Positions 32,400-36,330 are shown, counted from the stretch's first letter. The stretch is 64,000 nucleotides of DNA from an uncultured Mycoplasmatota bacterium (GCA_900547465.1 URHJ01000001.1:20341-84340); one strand, 5' to 3'. A program made the numbers and translations. Notes: generated by a model not told the origin, from the letters alone.

Positions 32400-32852
32400 C
32401 TATAAAACCTCAACCTTAGAGTCTTTATCCATATTTCTATTTGCACTAATTAAAAAGAAAATGTTAGAAACTATCAATCCATAAATAAAAATTTGCATAA
32501 ATGGTAGAAAATCTTCAAAATAAGAAAAATTAATACCATAACCCATAATTTCATTCAAAACCATTTGTTTATCAAAAATTGCTCTGTAACAAACAAAATT
32601 AATAACAGTAAAAACTAATACACTTGTAATATTATAAAATATATTTTGTGTTACAGCTTTTTGATGAAAAAGATAATTTACAGTATAAAGAACTAACAAA
32701 ATAACAAATGGTAAAAATATATAAATAGAAGACATTATACTTCTACCAACTCTACTATCCATAGAAAGTACTATAAAAAATGAAACACCAAAACCTATAA
32801 TTAAAAGAATAAATTTTAAAAAAGAAAAGATTAAGTTAAGAATTTTAATCAT
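32400..32852 (-). CDS. Small polytopic membrane protein, part of the inserted SipW module
   Basis: 150 aa with 4 predicted TM helices. Translationally coupled to the upstream gene (stop and start 2 bp apart). Confidence 0.45.
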   Translation of the reverse strand: MIKILNLIFSFLKFILLIIGFGVSFFIVLSMDSRVGRSIMSSIYIFLPFVILLVLYTVNYLFHQKAVTQNIFYNITSVLVFTVINFVCYRAIFDKQMVLNEIMGYGINFSYFEDFLPFMQIFIYGLIVSNIFFLISANRNMDKDSKVEVL

Positions 32853-32853
32853 A

Positions 32854-33543
32854 TTAAACCTCCAATTTTTTTTGATACCATAAAGCTATATCATATACAA
32901 AGTCAATTGAATTCTTATAGTCATCAAGTAAACTATAATAAGAATCCCTTGTTTTATCATACAAGGTTTCTTTAATATTAGTACTAGGAAAATAATAACT
33001 ACTATTACTCTTAATTTCCTTTTGAATATAATCTGTAGATTTAATAAGATTATCTATTTCATTTTGTAAAAATAAAGAAGAATCATCTAAACCATTAAGT
33101 TTCAAATTTTTATTAGTTGTTAAATCATAAAGTTGTTTAACTAAACATTCATCAGATATCACACTCTGATAATATTGTTGCATTTCATAATTATCTTTTA
33201 TATAAATCTTATTTTTTGTTAAAAGCTTATCAAAAGAAGAAGTATCTATTTTATCAACACAAGTATTTAACTTTGATTGTACTTGCACCATACTAAACAA
33301 ATCCTCTTGACCCTTATAATTATTTGAATCAAACGAATTAGCAATCCCACGTATAGAATTTAATTTTTGCTTCATTTCTTTATAAGTTGTAAATTCGGTA
33401 TCCTGCACTTCATATGAACTATTTACTTCTTTATAACTATAAATATTAGAAAACAAAAGAAAAAAAGAAAAACCAAATATAAGACCAGTTATAGAAAAAG
33501 CAAAAACATAAGAAAACTCTTTTATAATTTTCATAATAATCAC
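32854..33543 (-). CDS. N-terminally anchored hypothetical protein in the SipW module
   Basis: 229 aa. One N-terminal TM helix, the rest predicted extracellular. Start is 3 bp after the sipW stop. Confidence 0.45.
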   Translation of the reverse strand: MIIMKIIKEFSYVFAFSITGLIFGFSFFLLFSNIYSYKEVNSSYEVQDTEFTTYKEMKQKLNSIRGIANSFDSNNYKGQEDLFSMVQVQSKLNTCVDKIDTSSFDKLLTKNKIYIKDNYEMQQYYQSVISDECLVKQLYDLTTNKNLKLNGLDDSSLFLQNEIDNLIKSTDYIQKEIKSNSSYYFPSTNIKETLYDKTRDSYYSLLDDYKNSIDFVYDIALWYQKKLEV

Positions 33544-33545
33544 TC

Positions 33546-34322
33546 CTACAAAATTTCAATATCTTCATCATCATTTATATTTTTATTTTTATCATCAGAT
33601 ACAAAATCACCAGGTCCACCTATCATTTCAATATCATCAGAATTATTATCATCACCTTTATTGTTATCGTGCTCGTCTTCATTAGAAGAATTCTGTCCTC
33701 TTACAGTTTTTATAAGTTTTAATATATCAAAAATAACAATTCCCAAACAAGGAACAACTACCAACAAAACCCATCCATATGCTTGAGTCAAAACATATTG
33801 AATATAACCAATCTTAGGTATTTTTAAAATAACTTTTCCATACACATTATCACTAGAAACTAATGCAGAATCTTCGGTATTATTATTATCACCTTTTGTT
33901 CTATAAAAGTATCCCTTTTCAGACTTTTCAATACCAACTATTCTATGTGTGATGGTAAGACCAGAATACCTTGGATCACTAGATAAAAATGTAATAATAT
34001 CCCCTTTCTTTAATTCATCAGGTTCCTTCCGCATAATAACAATAGCATCTTCTACTTTAATAGTAGGAACCATACTAGGACTGATAATAACATAGGCTCC
34101 AAACAAAGGGGACTTTGGATTACCGCTTTTAACATTACGTATCATATCAATAAAATAAAAAGTAAATAAAACTGCTACCAATATTAATATAATTAGAATT
34201 GAATATAGAAATACTTTTGCTACAAAATGATACACACTATAGACAAGCTTTAAAATATCTTTAAAACTTTTTTTACTATATTTACTAGATTCATTATGAT
34301 CAAAAGTAATATCCATAGACAA
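33546..34322 (-). CDS. sipW: Archaeal/eukaryal-type (S26B) signal peptidase I, SipW-like, with a C-terminal TM helix and an acidic tail
   Basis: 258 aa. N-terminal TM, catalytic-region motifs IISPSMVPTI..GDIITF...ITHRIVGI...YRTKGDNN, a second C-terminal TM helix (as in B. subtilis SipW), and a D/N-rich extension. Confidence 0.7.
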   Translation of the reverse strand: MSMDITFDHNESSKYSKKSFKDILKLVYSVYHFVAKVFLYSILIILILVAVLFTFYFIDMIRNVKSGNPKSPLFGAYVIISPSMVPTIKVEDAIVIMRKEPDELKKGDIITFLSSDPRYSGLTITHRIVGIEKSEKGYFYRTKGDNNNTEDSALVSSDNVYGKVILKIPKIGYIQYVLTQAYGWVLLVVVPCLGIVIFDILKLIKTVRGQNSSNEDEHDNNKGDDNNSDDIEMIGGPGDFVSDDKNKNINDDEDIEIL

Positions 34323-34392
34323 CCCTCCTATTTTAATCTAACATAATAATAACACGAAACACAAAAAAAAGCACTACTTAATAATAGTACTT

Positions 34393-35001
34393 CTACATAC
34401 TTGCATAAACAAGTACTTTAATTTTAAAAGATCTCGAAACATCATCAATCAAATATTTATCACTAAGCCACATTTTTAAACGGAATTCATCACTATAATT
34501 AGTAGTTGCAGCCTTCTTACCAGAAAACTTTCCAGAATATAAAAGCATAGTGTTAGTATCAACTGAAATATTAGTTAAAGATGTATTAGGATTTTCCTTA
34601 AATGTTGTTGGAGAAAGAACAGTAGAAAAATCACCACCATCTTTCTTTTCTAAATAAATTTTAACATATTGGTTATCAATTTTATTATCAACAGTTAAAG
34701 ACTTAGCCCTTACTTCATAAAAAACAGTTGTATTACCACGTATAGCTGAAGAAACTTGAAAATCAAATGATTTAGTTTGTTTTACTCCAACTTCATCAGA
34801 TACAGGTAGTGCATCATTTATATCAATAACACTATCACCTTCTAAATATTCGAAAGTTATACCACCAGAACGTACAGTATTATCAACTCTAGATATTGCA
34901 GAAAAAACAAAAATTGCATAACTAATACCGACAATAGCAACAATCAATAAAGCTACACCAAAAACAGACAATAAAACCTGTTTAGAATCATCACGAATCA
35001 T
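34393..35001 (-). CDS. Paralog 3 of a three-member family of N-terminally anchored proteins (putative SipW substrates)
   Basis: 202 aa. N-terminal TM. Conserved blocks shared by the three paralogs: ITFEYLEG..DALPVSDEVG, FDF, YVKIYLEK, FRLKMWLSD, FKIKVLVY. Confidence 0.55.
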   Translation of the reverse strand: MIRDDSKQVLLSVFGVALLIVAIVGISYAIFVFSAISRVDNTVRSGGITFEYLEGDSVIDINDALPVSDEVGVKQTKSFDFQVSSAIRGNTTVFYEVRAKSLTVDNKIDNQYVKIYLEKKDGGDFSTVLSPTTFKENPNTSLTNISVDTNTMLLYSGKFSGKKAATTNYSDEFRLKMWLSDKYLIDDVSRSFKIKVLVYASM

Positions 35002-35060
35002 AAAATCACCTTATAATAAGGGTATCACACATAAAAATATGAATCAAGATAAAAAGACTT

Positions 35061-35693
35061 CTAAGAAGCCTTTCCATAAACATTTACCTTAACTGTATAA
35101 GATTTATCCATTTCAACCACTGCATCTTCCTTAATCCACATTCTCAAACGATAATTATCAGTTCCACTCTTTTTTCTGTTAAGCTTATAAAGTACCATAG
35201 AACCATTTGGAGAACCAATTTTAGATTTCTTAGTTATAGATTTAAAAATAGTAGGTTCCATTACTTGTTCATAAGAACCACTATTTTGTTTTTCTAAATA
35301 CAATTTTATAGAATTATCAGATATTGTTGAACTTTTATCCTTTATAGCCGCGATTTCATAAGTAATTGAACCATTTACAATATTTGATTTAATAGTAAAA
35401 TCAAAATATTCGCCTTTTCCATTTAAATGTTTACCAACTTCATCACTAGTAGGTAATGCATCCTGAATTGAAATACCATTCATATTTTCAGTATACGTCA
35501 TAGAAATCTTAGAATTAATACCTCCACTGCCGTTAGAGCCATTATCAGAATTATTTCTATCATCATCAGATGCAGCCTTTTTAAAAGCTGTAAAAGATAA
35601 ACATAAAACTAATATTACTAAAATAGTAACTAGTATTACAGAAATAAATATAAATTTAGAGGAATTACTTTTATTTTCTTGAGTACTATTCAT
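35061..35693 (-). CDS. Paralog 2 of the same family
   Basis: 210 aa. Blocks MTYTEN..DALPTSDEVG, FDF, IKLYLEKQ, YRLRMWIKED, YTVKVNVY. Confidence 0.55.
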   Translation of the reverse strand: MNSTQENKSNSSKFIFISVILVTILVILVLCLSFTAFKKAASDDDRNNSDNGSNGSGGINSKISMTYTENMNGISIQDALPTSDEVGKHLNGKGEYFDFTIKSNIVNGSITYEIAAIKDKSSTISDNSIKLYLEKQNSGSYEQVMEPTIFKSITKKSKIGSPNGSMVLYKLNRKKSGTDNYRLRMWIKEDAVVEMDKSYTVKVNVYGKAS

Positions 35694-35706
35694 AAAATCA
35701 CCTTCC

Positions 35707-36330
35707 TTAATTCTTAGCTAAAACATTTAACTTAATCTTAAATTGTTTTGCCTCAGATGTAATTTGATAATTATCAGAAAGCCACATTCTTAATCTAAAT
35801 GATTGTGTTCCACTATTACTAAACTTTCCAACATAAAGTTGCTTTGCATTAGCAGCAATAGAAGAATTCTTAAGTTCAGAATAAGTAGGTACTATCTTAT
35901 CATATCCATTCACTGCGGTATCTGAAGTGGAATCAGTCAAATACATTTTCACATACTGAGGATCTAATCTATTATCAACACCAACTTCTGTAGTATAAAC
36001 TTCATATTGGATATTTTGTCTACCAGACATTTTGCAAGATACAGAAAAATCAAAATACTTATTTTCTTTGTCATTTCCTTGCATCTTTTTACCTATCTCA
36101 TCAGATACAGGTAAAGCATCAGTTAATGTTATTCCATTATTTTCTTCAGTATAAGTAAAAGTCAATTCTCCGGTACTAATAATGTTTTTCTTTTGACCTA
36201 TTCCTTTAAAATAAAATACAGCAAATGAAAATCCAACAACCAAACCAATTAACAATACTATTAAAAGAGATGAAAATATAACTTTCCTTCGGAATTCATC
36301 ATCTTTTTTATCAACTTTTTCCATTAACAC
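35707..36330 (-). CDS. Paralog 1 of the same family
   Basis: 207 aa. Blocks TFTYTEEN..DALPVSDEIG, FDF, YVKMYL, FRLRMWLSDN, FKIKLNVL. Confidence 0.55.
   Translation of the reverse strand: MLMEKVDKKDDEFRRKVIFSSLLIVLLIGLVVGFSFAVFYFKGIGQKKNIISTGELTFTYTEENNGITLTDALPVSDEIGKKMQGNDKENKYFDFSVSCKMSGRQNIQYEVYTTEVGVDNRLDPQYVKMYLTDSTSDTAVNGYDKIVPTYSELKNSSIAANAKQLYVGKFSNSGTQSFRLRMWLSDNYQITSEAKQFKIKLNVLAKN

Follow-up and report, generated by a model that had tools for sequence, protein, structure and literature searches.

Three tandem genes for β-sandwich paralogs with predicted signal peptides (A, B and C), a gene for an archaeal-type signal peptidase and two membrane protein genes form a conserved operon, at positions 32400-36324 (minus strand) of the 64,000-nucleotide stretch of DNA analysed here (the window), in a lineage of uncultured low-GC gut Bacilli that carries sporulation genes. 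Our main reading, to which we give a probability of roughly 0.45, is that A, B and C are SipW-processed subunits of a surface fibre or coat built by donor-strand exchange, of the TasA or BsaA kind. The TasA, CalY and BsaA fibres are the basis of current models of the Gram-positive biofilm matrix. To our knowledge, these are among the few SipW-coupled fibres described, all of which come from cultured Firmicutes.

A conserved operon in uncultured gut Bacilli

All six ORFs named in a preliminary description of this DNA were found on the minus strand at the coordinates it gave (Table 1). Ribosome-binding sites and public gene calls moved three of the starts: gene A begins at the ATG at 36324 and encodes 205 rather than 207 aa, the peptidase begins at the ATG at 34316 and has 256 rather than 258 aa, and the first membrane protein (M229) starts at about 33534. 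The 207-aa form of paralog A corresponds to a start at the GTG at 36330. About 40 nt separate the end of tatD from the start of gene A. The two membrane protein genes do follow the peptidase gene; the translational coupling ascribed to them is compatible, and only that, with gaps of 11 nt (peptidase to M229) and 1 nt (M229 to M150). The hairpin behind gene C (−14.1 kcal/mol, z −2.3) is a candidate intrinsic terminator or attenuator separating the genes of the subunits from that of the peptidase; of 62 related loci, only 15 have a comparable hairpin with a T-run.

Table 1. Features of the operon and its flanks, in window coordinates.
Feature	Position	Strand	Remarks
tatD (yabD-like), upstream flank	36365..37123	−	PF01026
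Paralog A, 205 aa from ATG	35707..36324	−	signal peptide, then β-sandwich domain
Paralog B, 210 aa	35061..35693	−	same family as A and C
Paralog C, 202 aa	34393..35001	−	same family as A and B
Hairpin and U8 run	34363..34394	−	directly 3' of the paralog C stop codon
Archaeal/ER-type (S26B, SipW-like) signal peptidase I, 256 aa	33546..34316	−	two TM segments
M229, single-pass membrane protein, 226 aa	32854..33534 (start approximate)	−	no known family
M150, small membrane protein	32400..32852	−	about four TM segments; no known family
ksgA/rsmA, downstream flank	31565..32365	−	

The block had been described as inserted between tatD and ksgA. Its GC content (0.21-0.30 throughout) shows no compositional break, and about 60 species-level MAGs from uncultured gut Bacilli have the same arrangement at this chromosomal position. 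The block is thus an old, syntenic core feature of the whole lineage and not a local or recent insertion. Among the loci that extend far enough to test, the family array adjoins the peptidase gene in every case (62/62). The A-B-C order is kept in two distant clades, and individual loci carry between 2 and 7 copies. The slot was said to be that of yabE-rnmV in Bacillus; the rnmV part of this holds and the yabE part does not, because a yabE-like gene with a 3D domain is retained upstream in relatives.

Many genes around the operon are sporulation genes (spoVT, yabG, spoVG and yabP), and yabG is retained beside it in 51 loci, as would be expected if the operon built something specific to sporulation, for example a surface layer or appendage of the spore, instead of a vegetative fibre. 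We regard this as improbable. The neighbours follow the ancestral Bacillus-like order near the origin (metG-tatD-...-ksgA-yabG-veg-spoVG), so gene adjacency carries little functional information here. Moreover, no sporulation promoter was identified in a scan of sigma-70-type sites, where matches were no more frequent than chance.

The fourth gene encodes an archaeal/ER-type signal peptidase I, as had been proposed (TIGR02228, E 1.3e-30, 106.4 bits against a cut-off of 51.85). Its Ser/His catalytic residues are in place: Ser83, His126 and Asp145 (258-aa numbering), in the contexts SPSM, THR and KGDNN, do not vary among 62 orthologs. The His and Asp are 19 residues apart, as they are in B. subtilis SipW (S47, H87 and D106). 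The score to NF046067, the Bacillus SipW equivalog model, is 99.5 bits, below the cut-off of 190; the peptidase is SipW-like in architecture without being a SipW equivalog. The alignment to this model joins positions 5-185 of 189 to peptidase residues 41-223 and includes the C-terminal TM helix. This helix is therefore not the extra element it was taken for, and the acidic C-terminal tail, predicted to be cytoplasmic, is the sole addition. Of the membrane proteins, M229 has one N-terminal TM segment and a domain of about 190 aa; it evolves fast and is kept in most related operons. M150 shows 37-58% identity across related operons and never occurs without M229.

The paralog family and its signal peptides

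BLASTP confirmed, far beyond chance, that the three adjacent genes are true paralogs (A and C, 38% identity, E 2e-40; A and B, 29% identity, E 1e-21). The conserved blocks picked out earlier (DALP.SDE.G, FDF, VK.YL, FRLRMW and FK.K) are invariant or near-invariant alignment columns. In paralog B, the conserved N-terminal strand motif is partly replaced by a stretch rich in Asp, Asn, Ser and Gly. All three proteins fall in a large, unnamed family of 4466 clusters at 50% identity, for which we found no Pfam, NCBIfam or PDB relative; A, B and C themselves matched no characterised family, whether of lipoproteins, of binding proteins or in Pfam or NCBIfam. At E≤1, none of the three matched an NCBIfam model of SipW substrates (TIGR04088 for the signal class, TIGR04089/04090 for exported families). 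For the wider family, no SipW-substrate model was present among the 25 listed of 36 NCBIfam models matched at E≤0.01. The subunits diverge faster than their neighbours, which fits surface exposure: compared with the related locus L001, A, B and C are 52, 52 and 42% identical, MetG 84% and YabG 74%.

In A, B and C, the signal peptide opens with a stretch rich in Lys and Arg; a hydrophobic core of 18 residues and a helix-breaking Gly lead to the c-region (S/T)-(F/Y)-A, and A/V-F comes next. Across the family the cleavage context is (S/T)(F/Y)A|AF, where the bar marks the predicted cut. In all three paralogs a site is predicted at the end of the N-terminal hydrophobic segment: SFA|VF after residue 37 in A (207-aa numbering), SFT|AF, with Thr at −1, in B, and SYA|IF in C. 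The N-terminal logo of 430 sequences is strongly conserved on both sides of the cut (G33 87%, S/T35 91%, F/Y36 85%, A37 85% and F39 86%, followed by G45 80%, N49 91%, T53 86% and G54 90%). The strict motif is absent in about one third of short family representatives.

These N-termini appear to resemble that of TasA. TasA reads GGGTWA|AFND...ATFASGTLDL, is cut by SipW and has Phe at P2' (PMC10269814); the −3/−1 residues and the P2' Phe are the same in the A/B/C family. The preliminary description saw no obvious TasA or camelysin similarity, which is correct for the mature domain but probably not for the N-terminal 60 residues. Those residues match the TasA-family alignment with an hhalign E-value of 7.2e-5 and a probability of 62.7%, a score that is partly due to the generic hydrophobic core. 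The aligned region runs from the signal peptide across the (S/T)(F/Y)A|AF context into a first strand, N-x-I-x-T-G-x-I, and the TasA-type pattern G-x-T-W/F-A|A/Y-F ... N-x-F-x-x-G-T-L can also be seen in the family logo. When 2398 ORFs were searched with the TasA HMM, 24 of the 25 best, weak matches were N-termini of the A/B/C family; the reverse search behaved in the same way. The reciprocal matches are weak but specific.

Several tandem paralogs, each with a hydrophobic N-terminal helix ahead of a β-rich domain, might also suggest type IV pilin-like or pseudopilin subunits with a dedicated peptidase, and there is one weak match, confined to the TM segment, to a "pilin-like" conjugal transfer protein of the Mbov_0395 family. 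However, the alignments hold no G|F-x-x-x-E prepilin motif, and the peptidase is of the S26B type and not a PilD-type aspartyl protease, sequence features that effectively refute this identity. Nor was an assembly ATPase or platform gene found among the ORFs matched in the operon and the 62 related loci by the window's operon and flank proteins.

The mature domain and the case for polymerisation

The mature subunits have 165-175 residues, and the mature AF2 model, for paralog A, is a β-sandwich (pLDDT 80.5, pTM 0.78, with the core at 86-95). On this model, the mature domain appears to be a β-sandwich distinct from TasA and with no described relatives. PF12389 (TasA/camelysin) matched none of the three paralogs at E≤1, only two of 131 family members reached E 0.0013 with NF046066, and hhalign of the mature regions, without signal peptides, against TasA gave E 0.13. 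A TasA-like jellyroll or pilin fold had been suggested as something to look for in the paralogs; the best 50 PDB matches by Foldseek included neither TasA nor AbpA. The best neighbours, all weak, were lectins, carbohydrate-binding modules and adhesin domains.

In the mature model, the conserved first 11 residues are unpacked with pLDDT <50, and the next two strands reach 55-65. These low-confidence segments resemble the TasA segments that rearrange (PMC9674648) and, in BsaA, the donor loop, which is disordered (PMC11580942). We propose that A, B and C are made as pre-proteins with a Gram-positive Sec signal peptide and TasA-like cleavage residues, which the adjacent peptidase would remove at the outer face of the membrane. 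The N-terminal strand of each mature subunit would then enter a neighbouring subunit, as in TasA and BsaA, giving a surface fibre or coat in which A, B and C are mixed. M229 and M150 may serve as lineage-specific membrane partners for anchoring or assembly.

The weak Foldseek neighbours are in keeping with monomeric lectin- or adhesin-like β-sandwiches that are exported, cleaved by the SipW-like peptidase, and secreted or loosely bound to the surface as antigenically diverging copies. The variable copy number and fast divergence agree with this, and in C. perfringens the TasA-like paralog BsaB, from a sipW operon, does not form oligomers (PMC11580942). We nevertheless consider this alternative unlikely, as it does not account for 11 N-terminal residues of the mature protein that are conserved although the monomer model finds no place for them, for the way in which long adhesins without LPXTG would be retained on the cell after cleavage, or for the unchanging order of three ancient types of paralog.

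In B. subtilis tapA-sipW-tasA and B. cereus sipW-tasA-calY, a dedicated archaeal-type signal peptidase likewise lies beside secreted β-rich substrates, there are several paralogous or accessory subunits per operon, and the signal peptides also end in small-aromatic-Ala followed by x-Phe. The mature domain described here is shorter (about 170 aa versus 234 aa in TasA) and has no detectable homology to TasA, and two unrelated membrane proteins are present instead of a TapA-like gene. Compared with tapA-sipW-tasA, the present operon also has a fixed near-origin position throughout the lineage, and its N-terminal module is found fused to adhesin domains as well.

The C. perfringens operon sipW-bsaA-bsaB-bsaC is similar in combining sipW with tandem, remote TasA-like paralogs (PMC11580942). 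In the model proposed for BsaA, a monomer tethered by its signal peptide takes up a donor strand before SipW releases it, and heteropolymers of the operon paralogs have been suggested (PMC11580942). As in BsaA, which we compared by its description, an Asn in the N-terminal strand (N49, 96% conserved) and a Glu in the next strand (E62, 94%) are near-invariant. With K81 (85%), they give a candidate for the Asn, Glu and Lys triad of a BsaA-type isopeptide lock, and N-E-K occurs in 280 of 430 sequences. N49 and E62 are lost together, whereas the candidate Lys varies independently of N49 (Fisher p 0.31), and the N-E-K spacing is 13/19 here and 21/18 in BsaA. The von Willebrand A protein and type IV pilus gene link of the BsaA operon, and the LPXTG and sortase genes often seen in BsaA-type operons, are absent here.

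Small jelly-roll or β-sandwich subunits with signal peptides are also found in the archaeal bundling pili AbpA/AbpB of Pyrobaculum (PMC9245690) and in archaeal threads and cannulae. Such subunits polymerise by donor-strand complementation without a chaperone-usher system, and their kinship with TasA is detected only by the most sensitive methods. AbpA has a 97% HHpred match to PF12389 (PMC9245690), whereas the family described here has none. The archaeal loci contain no dedicated peptidase and differ in taxonomic domain and operon content.

Long family members and possible surface display

Short family members end directly after the last strand, without a C-terminal LPXTG signal. In addition, 62 long members carry adhesin-type domains (Big_2, LRR, PARCEL, LysM-type and Cadherin-like) beyond the N-terminal module, and 54 of these 62 keep the strict N-terminal motif. 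All 62 lack an LPXTG-like motif, and TM segments are absent both at their C-termini and internally. Sortase-assembled Gram-positive pili also encode tandem pilin-like paralogs by a dedicated processing peptidase and display adhesin-type domains at the surface, but LPXTG, a C-terminal TM and a sortase are all missing here, and processing would be N-terminal, by an S26B peptidase. In RFN20 and ML615J-28, two uncultured orders within this group of Bacilli, sortases are reported to be absent (PMC10868615), which suggests that the operon's system may fill their role. Published genome surveys suggest that such lineages have few surface proteins because they are without sortases.

This reported absence, together with the lack of any other anchor in the long members, could also mean that the N-terminal segment is an uncleaved signal-anchor. 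A, B and C would then be membrane-tethered surface proteins or adhesins of sortase-less Bacilli, and the peptidase the cell's general signal peptidase, encoded beside abundant surface-protein genes. The full-length AF2 model leaves room for this, as a single continuous helix (residues 8-44) runs across the proposed cleavage site. The hydrophobic core (18-20 residues) is long enough to span the membrane, and in the 13 loci without M229 and M150 the first paralog has no small residues at −3/−1. Still, a signal-anchor would account neither for the conserved G-x-(S/T)-(F/Y)-A|A-F at the end of the core and the polar conserved segment, nor for the specific likeness to the TasA cleavage region, nor for the strict adjacency to a SipW-type peptidase gene, and we give it a low probability.

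If the subunits are instead cleaved and polymerise, the long members, whose genes lie elsewhere in related genomes, would be displayed as parts of that polymer through the shared N-terminal module. More tentatively, and with some doubt, the module of about 170 residues may be the pilin-like block of a sortase-independent display system, working by signal-peptide tethering, donor-strand joining and SipW-type release, across a radiation of reduced-genome uncultured gut Bacilli. All module proteins, among them adhesins that exceed 1000 aa and bear Big_2, LRR or PARCEL domains, would first be tethered by their signal peptide, then joined to the polymer, possibly locked via Asn49/Glu62, and freed by the SipW-type peptidase. 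The membrane base would be M229/M150, or an uncleaved paralog in lineages without them, and the system would replace LPXTG/sortase anchoring in the lineages concerned.

The logic of the known SipW operons, a dedicated archaeal-type peptidase with tandem secreted β-sandwich paralogs, thus recurs in a different, very large and unannotated family, in an operon that is a fixed part of the core genome in common, uncultured Bacilli of human and animal guts. Even on a conservative reading, the family has a clear SipW-type cleavage motif and merits a Pfam or NCBIfam entry. If it is a polymerising display module, this would explain how the gut Bacilli concerned present their adhesins, put a name to a main unannotated surface-protein family of gut metagenomes, and offer a new donor-strand-exchange scaffold to study.

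Operon layout and conservation in related genomes

The paralogs A, B and C lie on the minus strand in the order metG, a 62-aa ORF, tatD, the 207-, 210- and 202-aa ORFs (A, B and C), a 258-aa ORF for the SipW-like signal peptidase, 229- and 150-aa ORFs for two membrane proteins (M229 and M150), ksgA, yabG, veg and spoVG. Ribosome-binding sites and public gene calls moved three starts, to an ATG at 36324 for A (205 aa), an ATG at 34316 for the peptidase (256 aa) and approximately 33534 for M229 (226 aa); residue numbers throughout refer to the longer forms of the preliminary description, which otherwise stood with minor corrections. 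Public assemblies of the same species also have a gene call for the hydrophobic 62-aa ORF, which matched no family. The proposed paralogy was borne out by identities of 38% between A and C (E 2e-40) and 29% between A and B (E 1e-21), and each conserved motif block described earlier corresponds to invariant or near-invariant columns of the paralog alignment.

Coordinates of features in the window and in related loci (L numbers) from the genome scan
Feature	Location	Coordinates	Strand	Remark
metG	window	37463-39004	-	MetRS, short 513-aa form
hydrophobic 62-aa ORF	window	37165-37353	-	between metG and tatD
tatD	window	36365-37123	-	upstream of A
paralog A, longer form	window	35707-36330	-	207 aa
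hairpin with U8 run	window	34363-34394		3' of gene C
ksgA	window	31565-32365	-	after M150
EssC gene	window	4513-9060	-	1515 aa
lysyl-tRNA synthetase gene	window	21140-23062	-	640 aa
217-aa protein gene	window	29362-30015	-	between spoVG and yabP
223-aa ORF	window	39959-40630	-	between mfd and spoVT
yabE-like 3D-domain gene	L007	2646-3233		about 24 other loci too
yabE-like 3D-domain gene	L012	7384-7986
176-182-aa gene	L001	10689-11219		42 other loci too
176-182-aa gene	L003	3848-4381
stretch within family array	L033	9355-14058		about 4.7 kb
stand-alone family member	L079	7938-8636		232 aa

Scanning one genome per GTDB species gave 79 loci, every one of them in a MAG labelled as uncultured Bacilli, 'Tenericutes' or Mycoplasmatota, or Candidatus Onthousia. 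The module to be sought in relatives was found: 62 loci showed the order metG-tatD-[2 to 7 family genes]-sipW-...-ksgA-yabG, and the peptidase lay immediately 3' of the family array in each locus extending far enough. M229 and M150 follow it in most loci and are both absent from a clade of 13. Because order and position are kept across related loci, the block is a fixed core feature of the lineage and no local insertion. GC content stays at 0.21-0.30 over block and flanks without a break; composition and synteny led us to reject recent horizontal insertion, and the earlier wording of an 'inserted' block was dropped. The exact A protein was recorded in 311 blocks of a public assembly collection. 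A hairpin like the one after gene C occurs in only 15 of 62 related loci, so that the idea of a conserved attenuator separating the subunit genes from sipW is only partly borne out.

A yabE-like gene with a 3D domain (PF06725) and a TM segment, 195-200 aa long, lies between tatD and the array in about 26 loci and has been lost from the window's clade. This leaves the array in the place that rnmV takes in the Bacillus gene order; of the yabE-rnmV slot proposed earlier, the yabE part fell, since those relatives keep the gene. Most loci, the closest relatives L001-L004 included, carry a gene of about 176-182 aa between sipW and M229. It encodes a divergent family member (hhalign probability 98.6%, E 9e-16) whose N-terminal motif is altered, and it is missing from L005, L006, L058 and the window, which holds three family copies and no more. 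The A-B-C order is common to the window's nearest relatives and to the distant minimal clade, and the three paralog types are therefore old. In the closed genome OZ006970.1 (L033), a further stretch of DNA splits the tandem array. The family member at L079 has no sipW near it within the fetched flank, and its neighbour, a 491-aa ORF, is SpoIVA-like by eye.

The window is the part of a low-GC Firmicute chromosome near the origin and contains gyrB, gyrA, dnaX, mfd, spoVT, yabG, spoVG, yabP, tilS, ftsH and the EssC gene. Its spoVT, yabG and yabP genes suggest that the organism forms spores or descends from a recent spore-forming ancestor. An operon in such company could encode a structure specific to sporulation, a reading that we consider very improbable. 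The low-coordinate end of the window may carry a T7SS locus, as suggested by the gene for EssC (TIGR03928, 884 bits), the type VII secretion ATPase. Residues 509-638 of the lysyl-tRNA synthetase, at its C-terminus, match TIGR00399, the MetRS C-terminal tRNA-binding domain, which the window's MetRS lacks. Neither the 223-aa ORF (Pfam and NCBIfam) nor the 217-aa protein matched a family; the latter begins with a signal-like segment and runs through a linker rich in Asn, Asp and Ser to a C-terminal TM segment.

The signal peptidase and the predicted cleavage region of the paralogs

The peptidase matched TIGR02228 (archaeal-type signal peptidase I) with 106.4 bits (cut-off 51.85). It scored 99.5 bits with the B. 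subtilis SipW model, under that model's cut-off of 190, in an end-to-end alignment that included the second TM segment. Ser83 (SPSM), His126 (THR) and Asp145 (KGDNN) occur without exception in the 62 orthologs of related genomes, so the refuting case named earlier, a peptidase that lacks catalytic Ser and His, does not apply. The C-terminal TM segment, described earlier as extra, is a normal SipW feature, and the acidic tail alone is additional.

A logo of 430 non-identical family N-termini starts with a Lys/Arg-rich stretch and an 18-residue hydrophobic core. Up to the predicted cleavage site it continues with G33 (87%), V/I, S/T35 (91%), F/Y36 (85%) and A37 (85%), and beyond it with A38 (55%), F39 (86%), T/S, Y/F41, S/T, K, x and G45 (80%). 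Three variable residues lead to N49 (91-96%), T, I51, T, T53 and G54 (90%), followed by x, I, x, M/F, x, Y60, x and E62 (85-94%). TasA, in a sequence checked against 8AUR and 5OF1, reads ...LVGGGTWA before the cut and AFNDIKSKDATFASGTLDLSAKE after it; SipW cleaves TasA, whose Phe at P2' is notable (PMC10269814).

Profile-profile comparison with a TasA-family alignment of 117 sequences gave a single 60-column match (probability 62.7%, E 7.2e-5), from the signal peptide to a conserved Pro and in the register of the logo and TasA motifs. With signal peptides removed the register was unchanged at an E-value of 0.13, which leaves mature-domain homology to TasA unsupported. As a specificity control, the TasA HMM was run against 2398 ORFs, about 450 of them family members, and 24 of its best 25 weak matches were family N-termini; the reverse HMM search from the family matched TasA residues 3-63. 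The NCBIfam SipW-substrate family models had no match at E<=1 for A, B or C. Because of these profile and HMM matches, set against the E-value of 0.13, we consider the predicted cleavage region to be TasA-like, on statistical support that is modest, but not the mature domain. The earlier statement that TasA/camelysin similarity is not obvious thus holds for the mature domain but not for the cleavage region. Motif and peptidase class lead us to reject type IV pilin-like subunits, which are effectively excluded. The hydrophobic cores could also serve as uncleaved signal-anchors beside a general-purpose peptidase; with a TasA-like cleavage region in the same N-termini, we find this unlikely.

Predicted fold and extent of the family

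The full-length AF2 model of A (pLDDT 76) consists of a helix (residues 8-44) and, after it, a beta-sandwich. In the model of mature A (residues 38-207; pLDDT 80.5, pTM 0.78), the core reaches 86-95, the first 11 residues stay at pLDDT <50 and the next two strands at 55-65. Foldseek found no PDB match at E<=1e-3 for either model (TM-scores <=0.41), and TasA was not among the best 50 matches. The list contained adhesin domains (Epf, SdrE, FnBPA), lectins, carbohydrate-binding modules, a viral jelly-roll, and FimG and PapG, which are donor-strand pilins. Cleaved but monomeric lectin- or adhesin-like proteins would suit several of these entries but would not account for a conserved N-terminal segment that the monomer model fails to place; we regard them as unlikely.

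Pfam and NCBIfam held nothing meaningful for A, B and C, lipoprotein and binding-protein families included, and nothing for M229 or M150. Positions 541-662 of the Mycoplasma SecDF model NF046001 weakly match residues 16-135 of A (E 3.4e-5, 22 bits, cut-off 500); the match may be an artefact of composition or of the TM segment, or the two proteins may share an extracytoplasmic domain. This match and a weak one to NCBIfam SAG1386/EF1546 (best E 5.6e-4, far under cut-off) may stem from the TM segment and low-GC composition. A word-indexed search returned 34 metagenomic homologs without names, and an exhaustive profile search 4466 cluster representatives at E<=1e-3 (1838 at 1e-10, 288 at 1e-30). 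The last profile search gave 635 matches at E<=1e-5, with no names or UniRef entries among the 120 listed; the sole name met in family cluster look-ups was 'hypothetical protein'. Profile searches found no PDB chain related by sequence to the paralog family.

In many cluster representatives the family module stands at the N-terminus of a protein of 330-1743 aa. Among 131 members scanned singly, the long ones carried Big_2, DUF6273, BspA-type LRR, DUF285/PARCEL, Listeria-Bacteroides repeats, Cadherin-like, LysM, F5/8-C and Laminin_G_3 domains, the repertoire of surface adhesins. LPXTG-like motifs, C-terminal hydrophobic segments and internal TM segments were absent from 62/62 long members, and 54/62 retained the strict N-terminal motif. 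Long members are encoded elsewhere in the related genomes, and none has its own peptidase within 8 kb. A survey of the uncultured orders RFN20, RF39 (the window's order) and ML615J-28 found srtA/B sortases absent from RFN20 and ML615J-28 and read their absence as an indication that surface-protein expression is reduced (PMC10868615). Our literature search for SipW in Erysipelotrichales, Mollicutes-like and RF39/RFN20 lineages turned up no account of such a system.

Proposed relation to SipW-dependent fibres

In TasA, residues 28-38 are the donor strand completing the next subunit and residues 39-61 rearrange (PMC9674648). In BsaA, the TasA-like protein of C. perfringens, the next subunit is completed by a disordered N-terminal loop (residues 28-38), which an N35-K74 isopeptide bond locks in place, with E56 as catalyst; in the proposed model the signal peptide tethers the monomer and SipW cuts after strand exchange (PMC11580942). 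The paralog family resembles these systems in its dedicated SipW-type enzyme, predicted TasA-like cleavage context, conserved N-terminal segment without a place in the monomer model, several old paralog types in fixed order, and module-bearing adhesins without another anchor. Given these shared ingredients, our favoured reading, at a probability of about 0.45, is that A, B and C would be SipW-processed subunits of a donor-strand-exchange heteropolymer. In sequence, the mature domains of the subunits fail as members of the TasA/camelysin family. The original interpretation is supported in part; the SipW-like peptidase stands, on TIGR02228 and the invariant triad.

M229 (one TM segment and a 190-aa domain) and M150 (about four TM segments and better conserved than M229) would act as membrane partners. 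The first paralog lacks small -3/-1 residues in 13/13 loci without M229/M150 and in 1/37 loci with them, by a pattern that under-calls cleavable sites and in an association that may reflect a single evolutionary event. This loss and the hairpin after gene C are weakly compatible with an anchoring role. Loss of N49 is coupled to that of E62, which is missing from 28 of the 38 sequences that have lost N49. For Lys81, the candidate isopeptide lysine, co-variation with N49 was absent and gives no support, which makes an isopeptide lock in the family no more than a lead. As expected for exposed proteins, divergence is faster in the subunits and M229 than in neighbouring genes. By analogy, the operon would work like the SipW-dependent fibre systems of TasA and BsaA, with subunits from a very large unannotated family.
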